NCBI GenBank assembly: GCA_937998345.1
Contig: CALLDH010000169.1
Span: 1 to 38,630 of the forward strand
Direction of reading: 5' to 3'
DNA: 38,630 bases
Source of the DNA: an uncultured bacterium
Lineage (GTDB): Bacteria > Myxococcota_A > Polyangia > Polyangiales > Houyiibacteriaceae
Of the stretch, positions 30,201 to 38,630 are shown in pieces; the stretch's first letter is position 1, and each line of letters starts with the position of its first letter. Under the pieces are notes generated by a model. The model had not been told where the DNA came from. It ran no database searches and saw only the letters and a program-made list of their open reading frames with translations. A program made the translations under genes and the position numbers.

Positions 30201-30698
30201 GTGATCACGTCCGTCGACCACATTCACATTCATGCCGCCGACCCTTCGGCCACGATTCGGTTCTACGAGTCCTGCTTCGGCGCTGAGCACCTAGGGTCCA
30301 TTCCTTCGGGTGAAGGTGGGCAGAACCAGGGCGTGCTTCTCGGCGGGCAGCTCTTGGTCATCAGTGCCTTCCCGTCAGGAATGACTCCGATGGAGCCGCC
30401 TGAAGCGGGGGAGGGGGCGCTTCGCTCCGGGTTTGGCGTGGCGCACTTTGGTGTTCAGACCACCGACCTCGATGGCGCGCTGGCGCGCTTGCGTGAGGCC
30501 GGGGTACACGCCCACGCCGAGCCGCGGCGCACTGGCTCGATCCGCTACGCGTATGTGACCGCACCCGACGGCGTGGTCATCGAGCTTGTTGAGCTCCACC
30601 TGCCTGCCCATCTCGCGCGGCTCGTGCCCCTGCTCAACGGCGTCAACCGAGCGATCCACCTCACACGACGCGCCCTCGCGAAGCAACTCTTCAAGTAG
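30201..30698 (+). CDS. VOC/glyoxalase family protein
   Basis: DHIHI...FY, HFGVQ, YVTAPDGVVIELVE. Confidence 0.88.
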   Translation: MITSVDHIHIHAADPSATIRFYESCFGAEHLGSIPSGEGGQNQGVLLGGQLLVISAFPSGMTPMEPPEAGEGALRSGFGVAHFGVQTTDLDGALARLREAGVHAHAEPRRTGSIRYAYVTAPDGVVIELVELHLPAHLARLVPLLNGVNRAIHLTRRALAKQLFK

Positions 30699-30771
30699 CC
30701 CCATCTCCTATGTTACGTTCAGTCCCGCCGGGACGACCGATTCCCGGGCGAAACCGGACCTTGGAGTGCAA

Positions 30772-31929
30772 GTGCGAGAACCTGAATCGAAGACCACACC
30801 GACCCTCGCGTATACTCGCTCCCCGGCACACAAAGAGACGAACGAGGCCAAGGCCGAGAGCCGACGCTTTCATTCGAGCTCGAAGAAAGTCAGGTTGCCT
30901 CCCTTTCCGAATAGTTGGTTTCACCTGGCCCCTTTTAGCGAATTCAAGAAGGACGAGATTCGGTCATTCAAGTTTCTCGGGCACGACATCATCGCCTTCA
31001 AAACGGGAAACGACAGCATTACCGTGATGGATGCGTACTGCCCTCACCTCGGTGCCCATTTGGGACGGGACGCGAAGGGGCGGAACAATCGGCTAAAGAA
31101 TGGATGCGTAGAGTGCCCCTATCACCATCTCACCTTCGACTCCGAGGGAAGCTGCGTACAAGGGAAGAGCCATGCGTCTGTGCCCAAGGCGAAGGTTTTC
31201 ACTTGGGAAACCGAAATCGTTGAAGGTCTCGTCTTCGTTTATCATCACAAAGACAAGTTGCCTGCGACCTGGAAGGTCTCTGAGTTCTTTCGCCCAGAAG
31301 GAAACTGGAGCCAGCCCTATATGACCTATCAAGGCGTTCATCCCATTCACCCGCAGGATGCCGCCGAGAACTCCGTCGACACCTTACATTTTCGGACTCT
31401 GCACCAGTTCGACCAGGTCGATCAGGTCACCGAAGCCGTTGCCGACCGTCAGCATTTTTACCAAACGCTTCACATTGGAAGGATGGGGATTCTCCCAAAG
31501 TTCATGAGGAACGTCCCCATCTACTCAGTCGTCAAAGAGGCCGCGGTAGGCGTTGGGTTCCCCATGGCCCACAATCGTTTTCATCCGATTGGATTGCAGG
31601 TAAACCATCTCGTTTTTCTGACGCCGATCGATGAGACCTCGACGAACTTCTGGTTCTACTTTCAGGTGTCTTTCTCGGACGTGAAAGTGCCTCGGTTCAT
31701 GAAAAGGCAAAAGGAGCGCCTCGACCGCCATTTGAACGAGCATGTTAAGCGAGCTGTCGACAGAGCTGTCCATCGCGCCGCATGTACCGCTCTGTCCCCC
31801 GTGTTTGCTTTCATCAACAGCCAAGATCTCGATATTTGGTCGACGAAGTCCTATTGCGAGAAACCTATCGTCTTGGGAGATGACGGCAACATCCATCTGT
31901 TCCGCAAATGGTGTAAGCAATTCTACTAA
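30772..31929 (+). CDS. Rieske non-heme iron oxygenase (KshA/Neverland-like)
   Basis: Rieske CPHLGAHL...CPYH, mononuclear Fe ENSVDTLHFRTLH, C-terminal QDLDIW..K and FRKWCKQFY. Start GTG 30772 (after ggag) or 30766. Confidence 0.88.
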   Translation: MREPESKTTPTLAYTRSPAHKETNEAKAESRRFHSSSKKVRLPPFPNSWFHLAPFSEFKKDEIRSFKFLGHDIIAFKTGNDSITVMDAYCPHLGAHLGRDAKGRNNRLKNGCVECPYHHLTFDSEGSCVQGKSHASVPKAKVFTWETEIVEGLVFVYHHKDKLPATWKVSEFFRPEGNWSQPYMTYQGVHPIHPQDAAENSVDTLHFRTLHQFDQVDQVTEAVADRQHFYQTLHIGRMGILPKFMRNVPIYSVVKEAAVGVGFPMAHNRFHPIGLQVNHLVFLTPIDETSTNFWFYFQVSFSDVKVPRFMKRQKERLDRHLNEHVKRAVDRAVHRAACTALSPVFAFINSQDLDIWSTKSYCEKPIVLGDDGNIHLFRKWCKQFY

Positions 31930-31966
31930 TGGCGACACTCTCCCCCCAATGCTTGGCATGACTGGC

Positions 31967-32653
31967 ATGACTAGCATGCCAAGCCGGTGCTGCGTGCTGA
32001 CTCTCTCTCTCTTGGCTGTGGCGTTGATTGCGGCCTGCTCGAAGTCGACGGCATCAAAGGCCACCATCCCCCGATACGACCGCATGCCGGGGTATGAGCG
32101 GGTTTTTTTCACGAGCTTGTTTGTAATCGGCGTAGGCGAGAACGAGGAAAAGAGACGGCTTTTCGAGGATGTGTTCTCCAGGGTGCTCTCCGGTGACAGC
32201 ACGTACGCGATGCCGAGTTGGAAGCGCTTGCCTCAGAGCCGACTTCTCACCGAGAGGGAGCTCAAGACCGCACTCAGCACGAATGACTTCGACGGCGTGT
32301 TGATCACCCGCTTGGTCAGCGTAGACGAGGACGGGGGCGAGGAACACGCGGAAGGAGATACGTCCGGAGTGCGGCGCGCACGTCCGTTCGAGGAATACTA
32401 TCAAGGCAGCTATGAGGCCGTTCACGAGCCCGGTTACTACGAGAGAACGATCGCCTACCGACTCGAGACGAACCTCTATGCGATCAGCGACGGTGGCCTC
32501 GTCTGGGCAGCTCATTCTGCCATCGTTGATCCGGCCTCGGTGGAGAAGGGCATCGACCGCCTGGCCGGAGCAGTCGCGGAGAAGCTCAGACAAGAGGGGT
32601 TGGTCCGCTGGGGGCTATTTTCACTCCTTGTGCGCCCAGGCGTGGGAATGTAA
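31967..32653 (+). CDS. Hypothetical lipoprotein
   Basis: Lipobox IAAC; RRLFED, DGVLITRLV, PGYY, LETNLY...LVW. Start ambiguous among ATGs at 31949-31976. Confidence 0.75.
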   Translation: MTSMPSRCCVLTLSLLAVALIAACSKSTASKATIPRYDRMPGYERVFFTSLFVIGVGENEEKRRLFEDVFSRVLSGDSTYAMPSWKRLPQSRLLTERELKTALSTNDFDGVLITRLVSVDEDGGEEHAEGDTSGVRRARPFEEYYQGSYEAVHEPGYYERTIAYRLETNLYAISDGGLVWAAHSAIVDPASVEKGIDRLAGAVAEKLRQEGLVRWGLFSLLVRPGVGM

Positions 32654-33647: not shown

Positions 33648-33730
33648 ATCGATGACGCCGTCGAAGTCGGCTCGACCACGCAGGACCAGACTTGGTTTGG
33701 CTTCGCGGTAATTCGTAAGCCGCGCGGCCG

Positions 33731-33774
33731 GTCGGCTTGCGTTCGGCTTGCGGTCGGCTTGTGGTCGGCTTGCT
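33731..33774 (+). repeat. 11-bp tandem direct repeat x4, probable operator
   Basis: gtcggcttgcg ttcggcttgcg gtcggcttgtg gtcggcttgct, upstream of TACTAT (33789-33794). Confidence 0.8.
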
Positions 33775-33806
33775 CCTGGGCGACCTGCTACTATCGCCCT
33801 CCGAAC

Positions 33807-35600
33807 ATGGGAACGAAGGAGAACATGCTCCGCGGAATCTGCGCGGACCGATATCGGCCGGACAAGATTCCCGAGTCCGTCGACACAGTCGTGATCGGCA
33901 GCGGCATGAGTGGGCTCACCGCCGCAGCTGTGCTCTCGCGCACGGGGCAGCGCGTGCTGGTCCTTGAACAGCACTACGTGGCTGGCGGGGGTTCCCACAT
34001 GTTCCAGCTCAAGGGCGGGCTGCATTTCGACTCGGGGCTCCACTACCTGGTCCCTTACTCCGGGCTTCTGATGTGGCTCGCTACGGGTGGCAACGAGATG
34101 CCGCTCCGGTTCGAGCGCATGGGCGAACCCGACGGCACCTTCGACCGCATTGCGCTCGGAAAGGAGCCGCCTTTCGGGATCAAGCACGACGAAGCCCATC
34201 TGCCCGACCTGTACGCCCGCTTCCCGGAGCGCAAAGACGACATCGACGAGTTCTTGCGAGTCTCGGAGCAAGTGTTGAAACGCTTTCCACTCTTCGTCCT
34301 CTCGAAGGCCTTCCCGGTCTGGCTTCAAAAGCCCTGGCATCGTCACGTGCTCGGTGAGACCTGGCAGCGCTACGCGGGCCGCAGCCTCAAGGAAGTGCTT
34401 CAAGAGATCACCGACGAGCCCTTACTCGCGGGACTCCTGGCTGGTCCCTGGATGGACACCGGTGCACCGCCTGATCGCGCGAGCTTTCTTCTGGGCGCCT
34501 GCGTTGCGCGCGGGCTCGCCATCGAAGGAGGCGCGTACCCCGTGGGGGGCTCCCAGGAGCTGGCGAAGTGCCTCGTTCCCGTGATCACAGGCGCCGGCGG
34601 ACGGGTGCTGGTGCGCGCAAGCGTCGAAGAGATCCTCGTCGATTCCGCAAAGGGTTGCACGACAGGCGTGCGTCTCGCCGACGGAACCGTCGTCCCGTGC
34701 AAGCAGGTGATTTCGAGCGTCGGCTATCACAACACCTTCGGCAAGCTCGTTTCGAAAAAGGTCACCGAGCAATTCGAGATCCCGCGTCGTCTCCCCATCG
34801 GGAGCTCCTGCGGCTTCATCATGGCCAACATCGGCCTCCGAGGAACCGCAGAGGAGCTCGGGCTCACCTGCGCCAATCTCTGGTACCACCCTACGCGTGA
34901 CGATGGGGACATGTTCGGCGCCATCGACGACTTCATGTCGAATCCCACCGACCCAGGCCACGATCCGATGATCATGGTGACCTTTCCGTCCATCAAGGCT
35001 CGGCAGGGCGCGACGCAGAACGGCGACAAGACGACCTGCCAGATCCTGTGCATGGCCGAGCACGCCTGGTTCGCGCAGTACGCGGATCGACCCACCCGCA
35101 AGCGAGGCGCCGAGTACAAGGCCGTCAAGCGAGAGTGGGGCGAACGCCTGGTCGCCCTCTTGCTGCGCTTCTATCCGCAACTCGACGGCAGGATCGAGCT
35201 CGTGGACGTCTCGACACCTCTCTCGATCGAGCACTACCTCGGCGCGCACCAGGGGGGCGCAGTGGGTCTCGATCATACCCCGGAGCGCTTCACCGACTGG
35301 AGCCTGGTCGAGCGCCTCAACGCTCGCACGCCGATCGAAGGCCTCTGGCTCACGGGTCAGGACACGGTCACCTGTGGACAACCCATCGTCCAGGGCGCAG
35401 GCCTGATCACGGCGTTTCGCGTGCTGGGCCTCCAGCAATCGCTTCGGTACCTGGCCCGCACGCTCCCACCCATCGTGGGCAGCCTGGCTCAGCAACGACG
35501 GAGCGACTCGTCGAATGGGCCGCGCCCTGAGCTCGATCGTGCTTCGCAACCGACGAGCCGCGACCCTGAGGCCAAGCACGTGCTGGCTGCCGAAGAGTGA
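33807..35600 (+). CDS. FAD-dependent oxidoreductase, phytoene desaturase/retinol saturase (RetSat-like) family
   Basis: VIGSGMSGL, VLEQHYVAGG, FDSGLHY, YPVGGS, TFPSIK, STPLS, GLDHTPERF, TPIEGLWLTGQD. Start 33807 or 33825. Confidence 0.88.
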   Translation: MGTKENMLRGICADRYRPDKIPESVDTVVIGSGMSGLTAAAVLSRTGQRVLVLEQHYVAGGGSHMFQLKGGLHFDSGLHYLVPYSGLLMWLATGGNEMPLRFERMGEPDGTFDRIALGKEPPFGIKHDEAHLPDLYARFPERKDDIDEFLRVSEQVLKRFPLFVLSKAFPVWLQKPWHRHVLGETWQRYAGRSLKEVLQEITDEPLLAGLLAGPWMDTGAPPDRASFLLGACVARGLAIEGGAYPVGGSQELAKCLVPVITGAGGRVLVRASVEEILVDSAKGCTTGVRLADGTVVPCKQVISSVGYHNTFGKLVSKKVTEQFEIPRRLPIGSSCGFIMANIGLRGTAEELGLTCANLWYHPTRDDGDMFGAIDDFMSNPTDPGHDPMIMVTFPSIKARQGATQNGDKTTCQILCMAEHAWFAQYADRPTRKRGAEYKAVKREWGERLVALLLRFYPQLDGRIELVDVSTPLSIEHYLGAHQGGAVGLDHTPERFTDWSLVERLNARTPIEGLWLTGQDTVTCGQPIVQGAGLITAFRVLGLQQSLRYLARTLPPIVGSLAQQRRSDSSNGPRPELDRASQPTSRDPEAKHVLAAEE

Positions 35601-35656
35601 CCCGCCGGGCCTGGCGGACCGCTTGATGCACGTGGGGTAGCGGTGCTACAAGAACC

Positions 35657-36805
35657 GTGACTCTAATGACAGGGTTTTTGGAGATGGGGCAGGGGACCAC
35701 CTCGGTCGAGCGCGGAATTCGGGTGCGCGAGGCAAGGCCTGAGGACAATCGATTCCTGATCGACCTCAGTGAGCAGTGTCCCATGCAGGCGGACACCTCC
35801 CTGCTGATCGAGCGCTCGCCAGACTTCTTTGCGCTCTCGAATGCGAGAGGCAGCTCTTGGACTGCCGTTGTTGAAGCGGGAGGACGCCTGGTGGCGTGTG
35901 CCAGTGTTGCGCGGCGCCCTGCGTGGGTCTCCGGCAAGCGGATGGAAATGGGTGTCATCGCCGACGTGAAGGTCTCCCCGGACCATCGAGGGCGAGGAGT
36001 CGCAGGGCAGTTGCTGACGCACCTCGTGCAGGCGGAGCGTGCGCGTGCGCCGGCCGTCTTTGCGGGCCTGACCGCAGCAGGTAACCAGTCGATCGATGGC
36101 ATGTTGCGAAGCTTTGGGGAAATGCTTCCGCTCAACCGCCTCGCCACGTTCACGTCGTATGAGCTGCTGCCCTTGATTCCCCTCAGGGTCAGGAAGGACC
36201 TTCTGATCCGGCCCGCGACCGAATCGGACCGAAGTGTTATGGTGTCGCTCCTCTCGAGATTTCACCGTAGCTACTGCTTTGGGCCGGTGTTTGAGGACGG
36301 CGGTTTCGAGGCGCAACTGGCGCGTAGCCCAGGGATGGACATTTCGTCGTACTGGCTGGCTTTTCGCGGAAACGTGCTCGAGGCGGCGCTTGGGACTTGG
36401 GACCAAAGCGCGTTCAAGCGCATTCGCGTTCTGAGCATGCCGAGCAGCATGCGCCTGGCTGTGGAGTCGCTCCGGAAGGTGTCGGCGTTCGCACCGCTTC
36501 CCAAGCTGCCGACGGTCGGGGACGTCTTGCGTCTTCGCTACCTCCGCCACGCCGCCCATCTGCCAGGAAAGCTCGACTCGCTCAGCGCCCTAGTTCGGCA
36601 CTGCGTCAATGATGCGCGCAAGCGGGAGGATCATTTCGTTCTCTTCACCTGCGCGGATACGGATCCACTTGCCGGAGCCGTGCGAGGAATTCCCCGATTC
36701 ACCTATCGATATGGCCTCACCGCAGGCTGCAATCGTCCCGAGGCCCAGCCGCTACTCGAAGCGATTGGCGATCAAACTTTCTACGACGACGCGAGTCTTT
36801 CATGA
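35657..36805 (+). CDS. GNAT-family acyltransferase (tandem-domain length)
   Basis: Acyl-CoA motif DVKVSPDHRGRGVAGQL; second GNAT-like start IRPATESD; ERSPDFF. Confidence 0.82.
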   Translation: MTLMTGFLEMGQGTTSVERGIRVREARPEDNRFLIDLSEQCPMQADTSLLIERSPDFFALSNARGSSWTAVVEAGGRLVACASVARRPAWVSGKRMEMGVIADVKVSPDHRGRGVAGQLLTHLVQAERARAPAVFAGLTAAGNQSIDGMLRSFGEMLPLNRLATFTSYELLPLIPLRVRKDLLIRPATESDRSVMVSLLSRFHRSYCFGPVFEDGGFEAQLARSPGMDISSYWLAFRGNVLEAALGTWDQSAFKRIRVLSMPSSMRLAVESLRKVSAFAPLPKLPTVGDVLRLRYLRHAAHLPGKLDSLSALVRHCVNDARKREDHFVLFTCADTDPLAGAVRGIPRFTYRYGLTAGCNRPEAQPLLEAIGDQTFYDDASLS

Positions 36806-37959
36806 ACGATACGAAGACCCCAGGGCACGACGGTGTCCAGCTTGATGAGCTCATCTTCACGTTGAGCTGGGAAGATCCAGCACTCGACGTGGAGGCGCTA
36901 CGCGTGAGCTCAAACACGCGCATTGCGACCGTTGCCTCGGGAGGGTGCAACGCGCTCACCTTCCTCTTGCATGACCCCGCATTCGTCTACGCGTTCGACT
37001 ACAATCTCACGCAGGTTTGGACGCTACAGCTCAAAGCGGCCGCGTTCCGAACCCTCGATCACGCAGCGGTCCTCGAGTTGTTTGGAGTGCGTGAGTCGAA
37101 TCGGCGTCGCACGCTCGTCGAAACGGCGGTCCAAGAGCTCTCCCCTGAAGCGCGTCAATACTGGCTCGGTCGCGAGGACCTAGTGCAACAGGGTTTGCTT
37201 GGCCTCGGGCGCTACGAGCGGTTTGTCCGCGCCTTTCGGACCCTGCTTCGCCTCATACAGGGGCGACGTCGAATCGAAGCTTTGTTCGACGAGCGCGATC
37301 AGCAAGCCCGCGTGGAGTTCTTCGAGAACAAATGGAACAGCCGGGCTTGGCGCTTGCTTTTCAAAGCCTTCTTCAACAAGACCGTCCTGTCCCGACGGGG
37401 GCTGAGCCCGGAGTACTTCACATTCGATGACGGCTCGACTTCCTTTGCCGACAGCTTTGCACGACGTACTCGACACGCGTTGACGGAGCTTTCCGTACGC
37501 GACAACCATTTTCTCGCGCAGTACACCCGCGGTGCGTATCTCGACGAGGAACATCTTCCCGACTATCTGCGCGAGGAGAATTTCGATCTTTTGCGTTCGC
37601 GCCTCGATCGACTCGTACTAGAGCAGAACGACGTTCGAAGCCTCGTGGAGCGCTTTGGGCCGTCGGCCTTCGACGGCATCTGCCTCTCCAACGTGTTCGA
37701 GTTAATGTCCGAAGCCGAAACGCAAGACGTATTGCAGAAGCTCGCTCCCTGCCTGGTTCCCGGTGGTCGTATGACCTTGCGCAATCTGATGATCCCGCGC
37801 GCTGTGAAAGGCGAGCTGGCAAGGCAGCTCGTTCGCGATGAACCCCTGTCCCGAGCCTTGCTCTTCAAGGATCGTTCCTTCGTTTACCGTTCGTTTCAGG
37901 TCTATACGTACCGGCCGGACGAGGCCGACAGAGAGTCGAGAAAGGTAGCCAATGCTTAG
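36802..37959 (+). CDS. DUF3419/BtaA-like SAM-dependent transferase
   Basis: SWEDPALDVEAL, VASGGCNAL, DYNLTQ, GRYER, LPDYL, LSNVFE, DRSFVY. ATGA overlap with the GNAT gene. Confidence 0.85.
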   Translation: MNDTKTPGHDGVQLDELIFTLSWEDPALDVEALRVSSNTRIATVASGGCNALTFLLHDPAFVYAFDYNLTQVWTLQLKAAAFRTLDHAAVLELFGVRESNRRRTLVETAVQELSPEARQYWLGREDLVQQGLLGLGRYERFVRAFRTLLRLIQGRRRIEALFDERDQQARVEFFENKWNSRAWRLLFKAFFNKTVLSRRGLSPEYFTFDDGSTSFADSFARRTRHALTELSVRDNHFLAQYTRGAYLDEEHLPDYLREENFDLLRSRLDRLVLEQNDVRSLVERFGPSAFDGICLSNVFELMSEAETQDVLQKLAPCLVPGGRMTLRNLMIPRAVKGELARQLVRDEPLSRALLFKDRSFVYRSFQVYTYRPDEADRESRKVANA

Positions 37960-38630
37960 TCCAGAACATGAACGCTATCGTCCGGTTCATCAGATCATCC
38001 TGTCCCAGGCGGTGGCAGGAGAGGCTATTGCGATTCGGCACTTGGCGCGCATGATTTGCTTGAGCAAAGACCTGGACGAGCGGCTAGAGCTGGTGCAGGA
38101 CGCAGGCAGGGAGCGTGCTCACCTGTTGAGCCTACGCTCCGTCGCCGCAGATATAGGAGCTCCGCTCGTTGCCGCTCCCGATCCGTACTGGGACGAGGTC
38201 GGTCGAGCATTCGATTCATTCGCTGATGCGGGGGATCTCGACGGCTGTTACATCGTCCAAGACGTTGTTCTCGAGTGCTACGCCATTACGCTGTACCGCG
38301 CCCTCGAAACCTGTACGGAGCCCTTCTTGGCGGAGCTGGTTCGTCGCATCGCCGACGAAGAGGAACGGCACCTGGCTCACGGCATCGAACGGGTGCGACG
38401 AGACCTCGAACGCGACCCATCGAAAGTCCATGCGCGGATTGAGGAGGCCAACGAGTCGGTTGCGCGCGTACTTGCCGGTTGGGTTCGCGAGGAGGACTGC
38501 GAACCGATCTGCGGCGTCTGTGGTAGCGTGGGAGGGACCTGTGCCAAGGACGACCTGCGTTTGCTCGGCATGGATCTTCCGAGTTTGCAGCCGGCGTTTG
38601 CACAATTGTATGGAGACAGCCTTCGTGCGG
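37952..38630 (+). CDS. Ferritin-like di-iron protein homologous to cyanobacterial aldehyde-deformylating oxygenase; 3'-truncated by window edge
   Basis: Hand translation, absent from the ORF track: MLSPEHERYR...GEAIA...ERAH...CYIVQDVVLECYAITLY...EPF...DEEERHLAHG...EEAN...CEPICGVCGSVGGTC...DDLRLLGMD...LYGDSLRA. No stop to window end; overlaps the upstream stop by 8 nt. Confidence 0.85.
   Translation, partial: MLSPEHERYRPVHQIILSQAVAGEAIAIRHLARMICLSKDLDERLELVQDAGRERAHLLSLRSVAADIGAPLVAAPDPYWDEVGRAFDSFADAGDLDGCYIVQDVVLECYAITLYRALETCTEPFLAELVRRIADEEERHLAHGIERVRRDLERDPSKVHARIEEANESVARVLAGWVREEDCEPICGVCGSVGGTCAKDDLRLLGMDLPSLQPAFAQLYGDSLRA

Follow-up and report, generated by a model that had tools for sequence, protein, structure and literature searches.

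The genes considered here lie in one orientation at the right end of a 38,630-bp stretch of DNA from an uncultured bacterium (the window, which is the entire contig C169 of its assembly). They encode a RetSat-like reductase, a GNAT acyltransferase, a DUF3419 protein of the BtaA family and a ferritin-type di-iron protein related to ADO, the aldehyde-deformylating oxygenase of cyanobacteria. The closest described systems are the BtaA/BtaB pathway to diacylglyceryltrimethylhomoserine (DGTS) in Rhodobacter sphaeroides and Sinorhizobium meliloti, the alkane pathway of cyanobacteria, ornithine lipid synthesis, and the tandem GNATs of the N-myristoyltransferase (NMT) or Eis type. According to passages of PMC3972451, BtaA transfers the 3-amino-3-carboxypropyl group of S-adenosylmethionine (SAM) to diacylglycerol, and BtaB then N-methylates the product. 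Alkane and alkene synthesis by ADO and its partner AAR (acyl-ACP reductase) is presented as a cyanobacterial speciality in passages of PMC3903477 and PMC6361979. Parts of PMC9743570 describe ADO as using ferredoxin-delivered electrons, place the docking region for ferredoxin and AAR near the substrate entrance, and report that ADO turns alkanes into alcohols or aldehydes. An excerpt of PMC7089970 gives the catalytic role of AAR Cys294 and the roles of its GxxGxxG dinucleotide loop and VAS(M/T) loop.

Comparison of related loci shows window positions 35616-38630 to be the 5' half of a conserved predicted operon whose invariant core is an ADO-like gene paired with an AAR-like gene, their products being non-cyanobacterial relatives, of sister clades, of the two enzymes that make alkanes in cyanobacteria; to this core most lineages add a putative DUF3419 transferase of a module-specific kind and a predicted tandem GNAT. 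The operon is patchily distributed across at least three bacterial groups. In it, a pair of alkane-type enzymes appears to have joined an operon of homoserine or aminolipid type, so that relatives of known enzymes stand in a new combination. As in the cyanobacterial alkane pathway, a gene for a ferritin-like di-iron protein neighbours one for an NAD(P)H thioester reductase that depends on a Cys; in contrast to that pathway, the operon occurs in organisms other than cyanobacteria, its pair stands among GNAT and DUF3419 genes, and further tailoring genes follow. The DUF3419 protein belongs, over its full length, to the same Pfam family as BtaA, and the chemistry proposed for it is alike: a lipid hydroxyl would receive the 3-amino-3-carboxypropyl group of SAM (compare passages of PMC3972451). 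However, an operon of the window type has no BtaB, a GNAT standing where BtaB would modify the amine, and the window's DUF3419 subfamily stands apart from the phylum's other DUF3419 genes. Like the ornithine lipids (OlsB/OlsA, OlsE), the proposed product would join an amino-acid head to an amide-linked acyl chain and a second chain, and a FA_hydroxylase gene with a weak OlsE-like match stands beside the module in one locus (L002); unlike them, it would draw its head from SAM and its second chain, ether-linked, from an aldehyde route. No homologue of OlsB, OlsA or OlsF was seen.

Literature searches, whose coverage did not extend to subscription journals, found no description of this gene set. 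Those on DUF3419 found no such operon among titles and the beginnings of abstracts; those on ADO outside cyanobacteria found none, the search for non-cyanobacterial ADO/AAR returning cyanobacterial work only; and those on a cluster of BtaA, aldehyde decarbonylase and acetyltransferase, and on PF11266/TIGR04059, found nothing relevant among the papers listed.

Conservation of the operon

Eighteen related loci were collected, two from a scan of the genome collection with the DUF3419 protein and 16 from metagenomes scanned with aligned ADO-like proteins, and all were searched with the window proteins by tblastn. The ADO-like gene adjoins an AAR-like gene in 15 of them; a single AhpC/TSA gene separates the two in the remaining three (L012, L013, L015). 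DUF3419 is present in 12 loci. Four contigs (L009, L017, L021, L022) end inside it, and the eight DUF3419 loci that have upstream DNA all carry the GNAT gene (orthologues in L002, L003, L007, L008, L010, L011, L019 and L020), which tblastn detected in none of the six loci without DUF3419. The order GNAT-DUF3419-ADO-AAR holds in the module loci except L003, a metagenome-assembled genome (MAG) of Bacteroidetes, in which DUF3419 comes last (GNAT-ADO-AAR-DUF3419) and genes for a fatty-acid desaturase and PAP2 come next; because the gene order differs there, the linkage has evidently survived rearrangement. The four-gene set thus recurs in this Bacteroidetes MAG and in a Deltaproteobacteria MAG (L002). 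The combination of GNAT, DUF3419 and ADO-like genes that the original prediction had picked out as a candidate lipid-tailoring operon is therefore one that other genomes share.

The reported arrangement of four co-oriented genes was verified in the open reading frame (ORF) listing and the sequence: GNAT and DUF3419 overlap by ATGA (36802-36805), DUF3419 and the ADO-like gene overlap by 8 nt (ATGCTTAG, 37952-37959), and a spacer of 56 nt (35601-35656) separates the RetSat-like gene from GNAT. The cluster does run off the assembly at its right end, as had been stated, since the window is the whole contig and the ADO-like ORF is cut; a full-length near-twin in the protein collection (P0014, 243 aa) indicates that this gene is short by its last 17 codons. 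The source genome (G000) is fragmented, with 346 contigs, 3.47 Mb in total and 79.5% completeness. The possibility of misbinning or of a chimera was rejected because the left 33.6 kb matches same-genus genomes, because the RetSat-GNAT junction is found on an independent metagenome contig (L007), and because 85-96% of sampled words of 33700-38630 are present in 14 sequencing runs from six studies.

Contig L007, which is 98.6% identical in DNA to window 35579-38630, serves as a proxy for what follows the contig end: the downstream genes of the window operon are read from it and not from the window's own assembly, and so is the adjacency of the ADO-like and AAR-like genes for the window itself. 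The plus-strand genes of L007 have stops and starts that overlap or abut. At the edge of another contig of the source genome (C22) lie a polysaccharide-synthesis-family protein (99% identical) and the first 153 aa of a PrpD-like protein (98.7%). These match the far side of the L007 arrangement, and therefore some 5-6 kb is merely unassembled; the window's true AAR-like neighbour is likewise unassembled.

The ADO-like and AAR-like pair

The ADO-like protein passes the Pfam cut-off for Ald_deCOase (PF11266, 33.6 bits against 28), and a profile of 17 ADO-like sequences matches cyanobacterial ADO structures with E 1.4e-28, both protein ends included. The di-iron ligands E24, E54/H57, E108 and E137/H140 are invariant among 17 relatives and align with the ADO motifs of 5UWZ; the protein is accordingly classed by its sequence as a ferritin-type di-iron protein that keeps all six ligand positions, the metal ligands being common to it and to cyanobacterial ADO (5UWZ, 4RC5). 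It differs from cyanobacterial ADO in falling far under the equivalog cut-off (TIGR04059, 32.2 bits against 222.65), in its position in a sister clade, and in a segment at profile positions ~163-201 that is ~20 residues longer and carries a Cys motif without counterpart in cyanobacterial ADO: C183-x3-C187-x2-C190-x6-C197-x-K. C187, C190 and C197 are invariant among the 17 relatives, and C183, which is missing in L003, occurs in 90% or more of the sequences. The spacing C-x3-C-x2-C is reminiscent of 4Fe-4S sites, and the motif may be a metal or Fe-S site.

An exhaustive hidden Markov model search of 1.84 billion representatives returned 212 proteins at E ≤ 1e-3, of which 31 reach E ≤ 1e-30. Among 54 full-length ADO-like representatives, 19 have the Cys motif and three exceed the equivalog cut-off for ADO; those 14 with the Cys motif that match the ADO model do so with 27-72 bits. 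In a 47-row maximum-likelihood tree, the seven rows of true ADOs are split, 100/100, from a 40-row group that contains the window protein and includes Cys-motif forms and a Cys-less subclade. This places the window protein in a predicted non-cyanobacterial sister clade of true ADO, not inside it. The original prediction had the family right in calling the protein an ADO-like oxygenase; its reading as a generic tailoring oxygenase gives way to that of one half of an ADO/AAR-type pair. Several relatives are fusions. Three members of the Cys-less subclade (P0034, P0043, P0049) and also P0100 are fused to a SAM methyltransferase, which in all four is N-terminal and of ArsM/UbiE type, and in P0125 a partial ADO-like match stands alongside a Rossmann domain of AAR type. 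In 28 other genomes of the phylum (G203:C62, G118:C33, G323:C4, G168:C165, G057:C57 and others) the ADO-like profile has weak matches, at E 1e-11 to 1e-16 and often in pairs on a single contig, which probably represent another ferritin-like family.

The AAR-like protein of L007 matches AAR structure 6JZQ with a phmmer E of 4.7e-33. Its FHAC aligns with MFAC(294) and its GAAGDVG with GATGDIG; the VAS(M/T) loop and R189 are kept, and R193 is replaced by P. Relative to cyanobacterial AAR (6JZQ/6JZU), Cys294 and the dinucleotide loop are thus retained, whereas the TIGR04058 scores, 138.9 bits in L007, 110.7 in L002 and 215.1 in L003, all lie below the cut-off of 449.7. The source genome also holds an AAR-like paralogue (C287:2257-4689, L004), 31% identical to the AAR-like protein of L002 and not at a contig edge; its AAR-like domain occupies the C-terminal end of an open frame of 810 codons, behind ~350 aa of unrelated sequence. 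The AhpC/TSA-type redoxin genes that stand between the AAR-like and ADO-like genes (L012:371-1126, L013:1865-2605, L015:7252-8004) are all in loci without DUF3419, and in L013 and L015 a short phosphatidylserine-decarboxylase-like gene follows.

The DUF3419 protein and the GNAT

The DUF3419 protein matches PF11899 from position 8 to position 384 of the 385-position profile, with 226.7 bits (cut-off 28.2). Its orthologues are 55-61% identical in module loci and 38% in the Bacteroidetes locus L003. The other DUF3419 genes of the phylum encode proteins 29-40% identical to it and, by tblastn over ~1.5 kb on each side, have no GNAT, ADO or AAR neighbour; the window protein is assigned from these comparisons to a module-specific subfamily. 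Its structural model (pLDDT 82.9) has a class I SAM-methyltransferase core and a helical insert of ~200 residues. A Foldseek search of the Protein Data Bank (PDB) with this model returned nothing at E ≤ 0.001, and the PDB copy searched contained no BtaA structure; VIA-align returned tied class I methyltransferase cores (Z 11-12.9, 151-222 residues aligned), among them MccD (Z 11.4) and phosphatidylethanolamine N-methyltransferase (Z 11.2). Prediction of a complex between the DUF3419 and ADO-like proteins from their alignments gave a score of 0.00 with no answer from the program, which speaks neither for nor against one. Elsewhere the source genome has another DUF3419-like match, a weak one of 32 bits split in two, at C280:1894-2640 (L024/L025).

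The GNAT protein scores 47 bits with Acetyltransf_9 (cut-off 25) and 35.9 bits with Acetyltransf_1 in Pfam. Foldseek places its AlphaFold model (pLDDT 80.9, pTM 0.82) closest to N-myristoyltransferases (1iyl_A, E 2.4e-13, TM 0.61) and to MAB_4324, a tandem GNAT, with ~380 columns aligned. The model makes it a predicted N-acyltransferase with a tandem-GNAT, NMT/Eis-like fold. In comparison with described proteins of this type (1IYL, 7Q3A), the fold is the same across all 382 aa at a TM of ~0.6, whereas sequence identity is only 10-14% and the window GNAT belongs to a bacterial operon. NMT moves a long acyl chain from coenzyme A (CoA) to an alpha-amine.

Distribution and neighbouring genes

Up to cysK, the window DNA is 72-94% identical to same-genus genomes; among the matches listed, no same-genus match lies past window position 35477. 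Protein-level searches of 18 same-genus and 23 same-family genomes found neither the ADO-like protein (E ≤ 1e-10) nor a DUF3419 protein of the window type (E ≤ 1e-20), and the cysK neighbourhoods of two genomes (G320, G411) are without the module. Strong matches are confined to two of 401 genomes of the phylum: the source genome itself and G192, which, with identities equal to those of L002, is presumably the same Deltaproteobacteria MAG. Because it was not found in the same-genus genomes searched, the module is taken to be accessory and probably acquired horizontally. Between cysK and the RetSat-like gene, at 33729-33773, lies an 11-nt tandem repeat (consensus CGGTCGGCTTG, 4.1 copies, 88% matches), which is the place where synteny with most same-genus genomes stops; it could be an operator or an insertion scar. 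Further to the left, G+C falls to 0.53 at 31001-32000 (~0.62 elsewhere), a dip that covers a Rieske/KshA-type oxygenase gene (30586-31929) with same-genus matches of its own.

The genes of the window and of its proxy are listed in Table 1. The AfsA-type hotdog, short-chain dehydrogenase/reductase (SDR) and GT4 genes were seen in the window lineage (L007-L010) only, and in neither L002 nor L003. Three loci share a gene of MmgE/PrpD type with 54-55% identity (L002:504-2036, minus strand; L007:8269-9945, minus strand; L017:2074-2532, plus strand), in the last of them directly after the AAR-like gene. Other accessories vary with the lineage: an ABC/FtsX transporter, the FA_hydroxylase already mentioned and a P450 in L002, in which a gene for an extracytoplasmic function (ECF) sigma factor follows the module; MacB/FtsX, a methyltransferase, FA_desaturase and PAP2 in L003; and genes for acyl carrier protein (ACP), enoyl-CoA hydratase, MacB/FtsX, a PSD-like protein and a LolA-like protein in L015. 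Directly upstream of the ADO-like gene or of GNAT, three loci have a gene for a protein of 580-690 aa with no Pfam or NCBIfam match (L003:3317-5068, L014:1899-3971, L016:2-1432; 24% mutual identity). The 583-aa copy of L003 was considered as a relative of the RetSat-like protein and rejected (BLASTP E 1.6).

Table 1. Genes and features of the window's right end and of the proxy contig L007
Feature	Sequence	Coordinates	Strand	Remarks
RetSat-like (gene 1)	window	ORF 33759-35600, ATG at 33807	+	597 aa
Left edge of conserved block: 41-nt leader before GNAT start	window	35616-35656	+	blastn to L010, L011
GNAT (gene 2)	window	35657-36805	+	382 aa
DUF3419 (gene 3)	window	36802-37959	+	385 aa
ADO-like (gene 4)	window	37952-38629	+	226 aa, no stop before contig end
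ADO-like	L007	2374-3105	+	
AAR-like reductase	L007	3115-4161	+	TIGR04058 138.9 bits
AfsA-type hotdog protein	L007	4158-4736	+	PF03756 94.8 bits
Epimerase/3-beta-HSD-type SDR	L007	4733-5710	+	
GT4 glycosyltransferase	L007	5711-6736	+	
B12-radical-SAM protein	L007	6720-8276	-	
MmgE/PrpD-like protein	L007	8269-9945	-	
Polysacc_synt membrane protein	L007	10020-11102	-	weak match, 26.2 bits, cut-off 28.2

A proposed pathway and its alternatives

The operon probably makes an undescribed amino-acid-headed lipid; the amino-lipid or acylated-metabolite product of the original prediction was a reasonable one to infer. In the scheme that we favour, with a confidence that falls somewhat short of even, a fatty-aldehyde route would feed a SAM-derived homoserine head group that is later N-acylated. 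The AAR-like protein would reduce a fatty acyl thioester to the aldehyde by way of its conserved active-site Cys. The ADO-like protein would then remove C1 oxidatively, releasing, or going on to, a C(n-1) alcohol rather than an inert alkane, and its Cys motif might hold a metal or Fe-S centre that feeds in electrons in place of docked ferredoxin. An alcohol is proposed because the next enzymes need a nucleophile. ADO can reportedly form n-1 alcohols in vitro, a reaction on which the literature search found nothing. The DUF3419 enzyme would pass the 3-amino-3-carboxypropyl (homoserine) group from SAM to the hydroxyl so formed, in the way that BtaA acts on diacylglycerol, and the tandem GNAT would acylate the new alpha-amine, with acyl-CoA or acyl-ACP as the fatty acyl donor. 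This would give a homoserine-type lipid with two tails, N-acyl and O-alkyl, which GT4 would glycosylate in the window lineage. Tailoring and export would differ among lineages, with GT4, SDR and the AfsA-type hotdog serving in the window lineage and MacB/FtsX ABC transporters, a fatty-acid hydroxylase or desaturase and PAP2 elsewhere. The AhpC/TSA gene of three loci would suit the removal of peroxide, which is reportedly an inhibitory by-product of ADO.

Several observations point in this direction. The AAR-like partner beside the ADO-like gene points to fatty-aldehyde chemistry; the confinement of GNAT to loci with DUF3419 is what one would expect if its substrate were the amine put in place by DUF3419; and the N-myristoyltransferase fold supports a fatty-acyl-to-amine role. 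The accessories elsewhere are of lipid type (MacB/FtsX, PAP2, FA_desaturase, FA_hydroxylase, ACP, enoyl-CoA hydratase, LolA-like), and the fusions of ADO-like domains to SAM methyltransferases and to an AAR-type Rossmann domain (P0125) also count in favour. So do the linkage that outlasts a changed gene order, the retained di-iron ligands and AAR catalytic residues, and the alcohols that ADO can yield according to PMC9743570. A bolder version, in which the clade of ADO relatives would be no alkane synthase but an alcohol-forming or functionalising deformylase with a built-in site of electron entry (a Cys-ligated metal or Fe-S centre) that builds, with the AAR-like, BtaA-like and tandem-GNAT proteins, ether-linked N-acyl homoserine lipids, glycosylated in the window lineage, as a hitherto undescribed class of bacterial membrane lipids, and in which the operon would have spread horizontally among marine-sediment bacteria, is quite unlikely.

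Other observations weigh against the favoured scheme. Canonical ADO gives an alkane, which neither DUF3419 nor GNAT could use, so that the alcohol step is an assumption. The DUF3419 enzyme could just as well use diacylglycerol like BtaA, or transfer methyl groups: its fold fits only generic class I methyltransferases and does not separate methyl from aminocarboxypropyl transfer. The MmgE/PrpD-like gene and the AfsA-type hotdog have no role in the scheme, and the methyltransferase fusions fall in a subclade other than the window protein's. The AAR-like gene is in neither the window nor the assembled genome, which has only the 31%-identical paralogue. The loci, moreover, are not all independent: L007-L011, with 84-100% protein identity to the window, are one lineage, and the set is represented by roughly five or six lineages (the window group, L002, L017/L019, L020/L021, L022 and L003).

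Finally, in six of the 18 loci the ADO/AAR pair has neither DUF3419 nor GNAT beside it and can therefore work on its own. This is also the starting point of the likeliest alternative, though we consider it rather unlikely, namely that the operon co-regulates two separate functions which both adjust the membrane: alkane or alkene synthesis by the ADO/AAR pair, and synthesis by DUF3419 of a diacylglyceryl-homoserine that GNAT N-acylates in place of BtaB's methylation. It agrees with the retention of all ADO ligands and of the AAR catalytic Cys, and with diacylglycerol being the substrate in the sole characterised DUF3419 activity (passages of PMC3972451). It does not readily explain why the four genes stay linked despite a change of order and across distant groups, why their start and stop codons overlap, or why this DUF3419 subfamily is seen only with the pair while the phylum's other DUF3419 genes lack such neighbours.

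The downstream genes of L007 raise a different possibility, an unlikely one: a small diffusible metabolite or signal (for example a butenolide, or a gamma-butyrolactone-like or acyl-homoserine-type compound) assembled from a beta-ketoacyl or aldehyde intermediate by the AfsA-type hotdog, AAR-like and SDR proteins and from SAM-derived homoserine by DUF3419 and GNAT. LuxI-type synthases set a precedent for GNAT-fold chemistry acting on SAM; the hotdog (PF03756) and SDR genes do come after the AAR-like gene in L007-L010, and the ECF sigma factor gene after the module in L002 would befit a signal. However, the hotdog protein is single-domain and scores 79.9 bits with the ScbA/BarX model, below the cut-off of 200; it, the SDR and GT4 are limited to the window lineage, and the other lineages carry lipid-type accessories with MacB/FtsX or LolA-like export genes. 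Among these readings, the N-acyl, O-alkyl homoserine-type lipid remains the one preferred.

A four-gene tailoring operon, in which the oxygenase would hydroxylate or desaturate a lipid and the RetSat-like reductase saturate a chain, is very doubtful. The RetSat-like protein (Pfam Amino_oxidase and NAD_binding_8) reaches no named equivalog, scoring 113.3 bits with TIGR02730 (cut-off 586.9) and 91.7 bits with TIGR02734 (cut-off 238.1), and is classifiable as a CrtI/CrtISO/RetSat-superfamily FAD oxidoreductase at the superfamily level only. Its gene is co-oriented with the other three, the window sequence has no terminator-like site between it and GNAT, and L007 includes its final 22 nt, which puts the junction on an independent contig. 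Against its membership, tblastn found a RetSat-like match in none of the 18 related loci; homology to L010/L011 (87.4% over 3018 nt, blastn) begins at 35616, past the RetSat-like stop codon, and the gene upstream of the module in those loci is OsmC-like; an orthologue in a same-genus genome (G401, 77% aa identity) has other neighbours; and the pairing of the oxygenase with an AAR-like gene in all 18 loci argues for aldehyde chemistry. The RetSat-like gene is a genuine neighbour in this population that lies outside the conserved module, so that of its suggested, less certain membership of the operon only the proximity has stood. Contigs of four RNA or possibly-RNA runs, from libraries that may carry DNA, were aligned to 33700-38630. 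Three RNA libraries from different studies (X17, X18, X19) have pieces on the RetSat-like gene only (33785-35481, ≥99% identity; carried-over DNA is possible), and only the pieces of X15, a run presumed but not known to be RNA, fall on GNAT (36012-36231) and on the ADO-like gene (38124-38311); stretches without pieces carry no weight as evidence.

Ordinary DGTS synthesis, with BtaB encoded elsewhere, is highly improbable: the high Pfam score of the DUF3419 protein would suit it, but DUF3419 sits with GNAT and the ADO/AAR pair in all module loci and no methyltransferase is found among the seven operon genes of L007, so that the absence of btaB remarked on for the window extends downstream of it on the proxy (in L003, a generic 202-aa Methyltransf_11 gene lies three genes upstream).

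Implications

Should the product be found, it would give a function to the module-specific branch of DUF3419, a large and almost uncharacterised family, and would extend the reach of ADO chemistry beyond alkanes. The product itself would probably be a new bacterial aminolipid or lipid-derived metabolite, and the extra Cys motif of the ADO-like protein may serve engineering.

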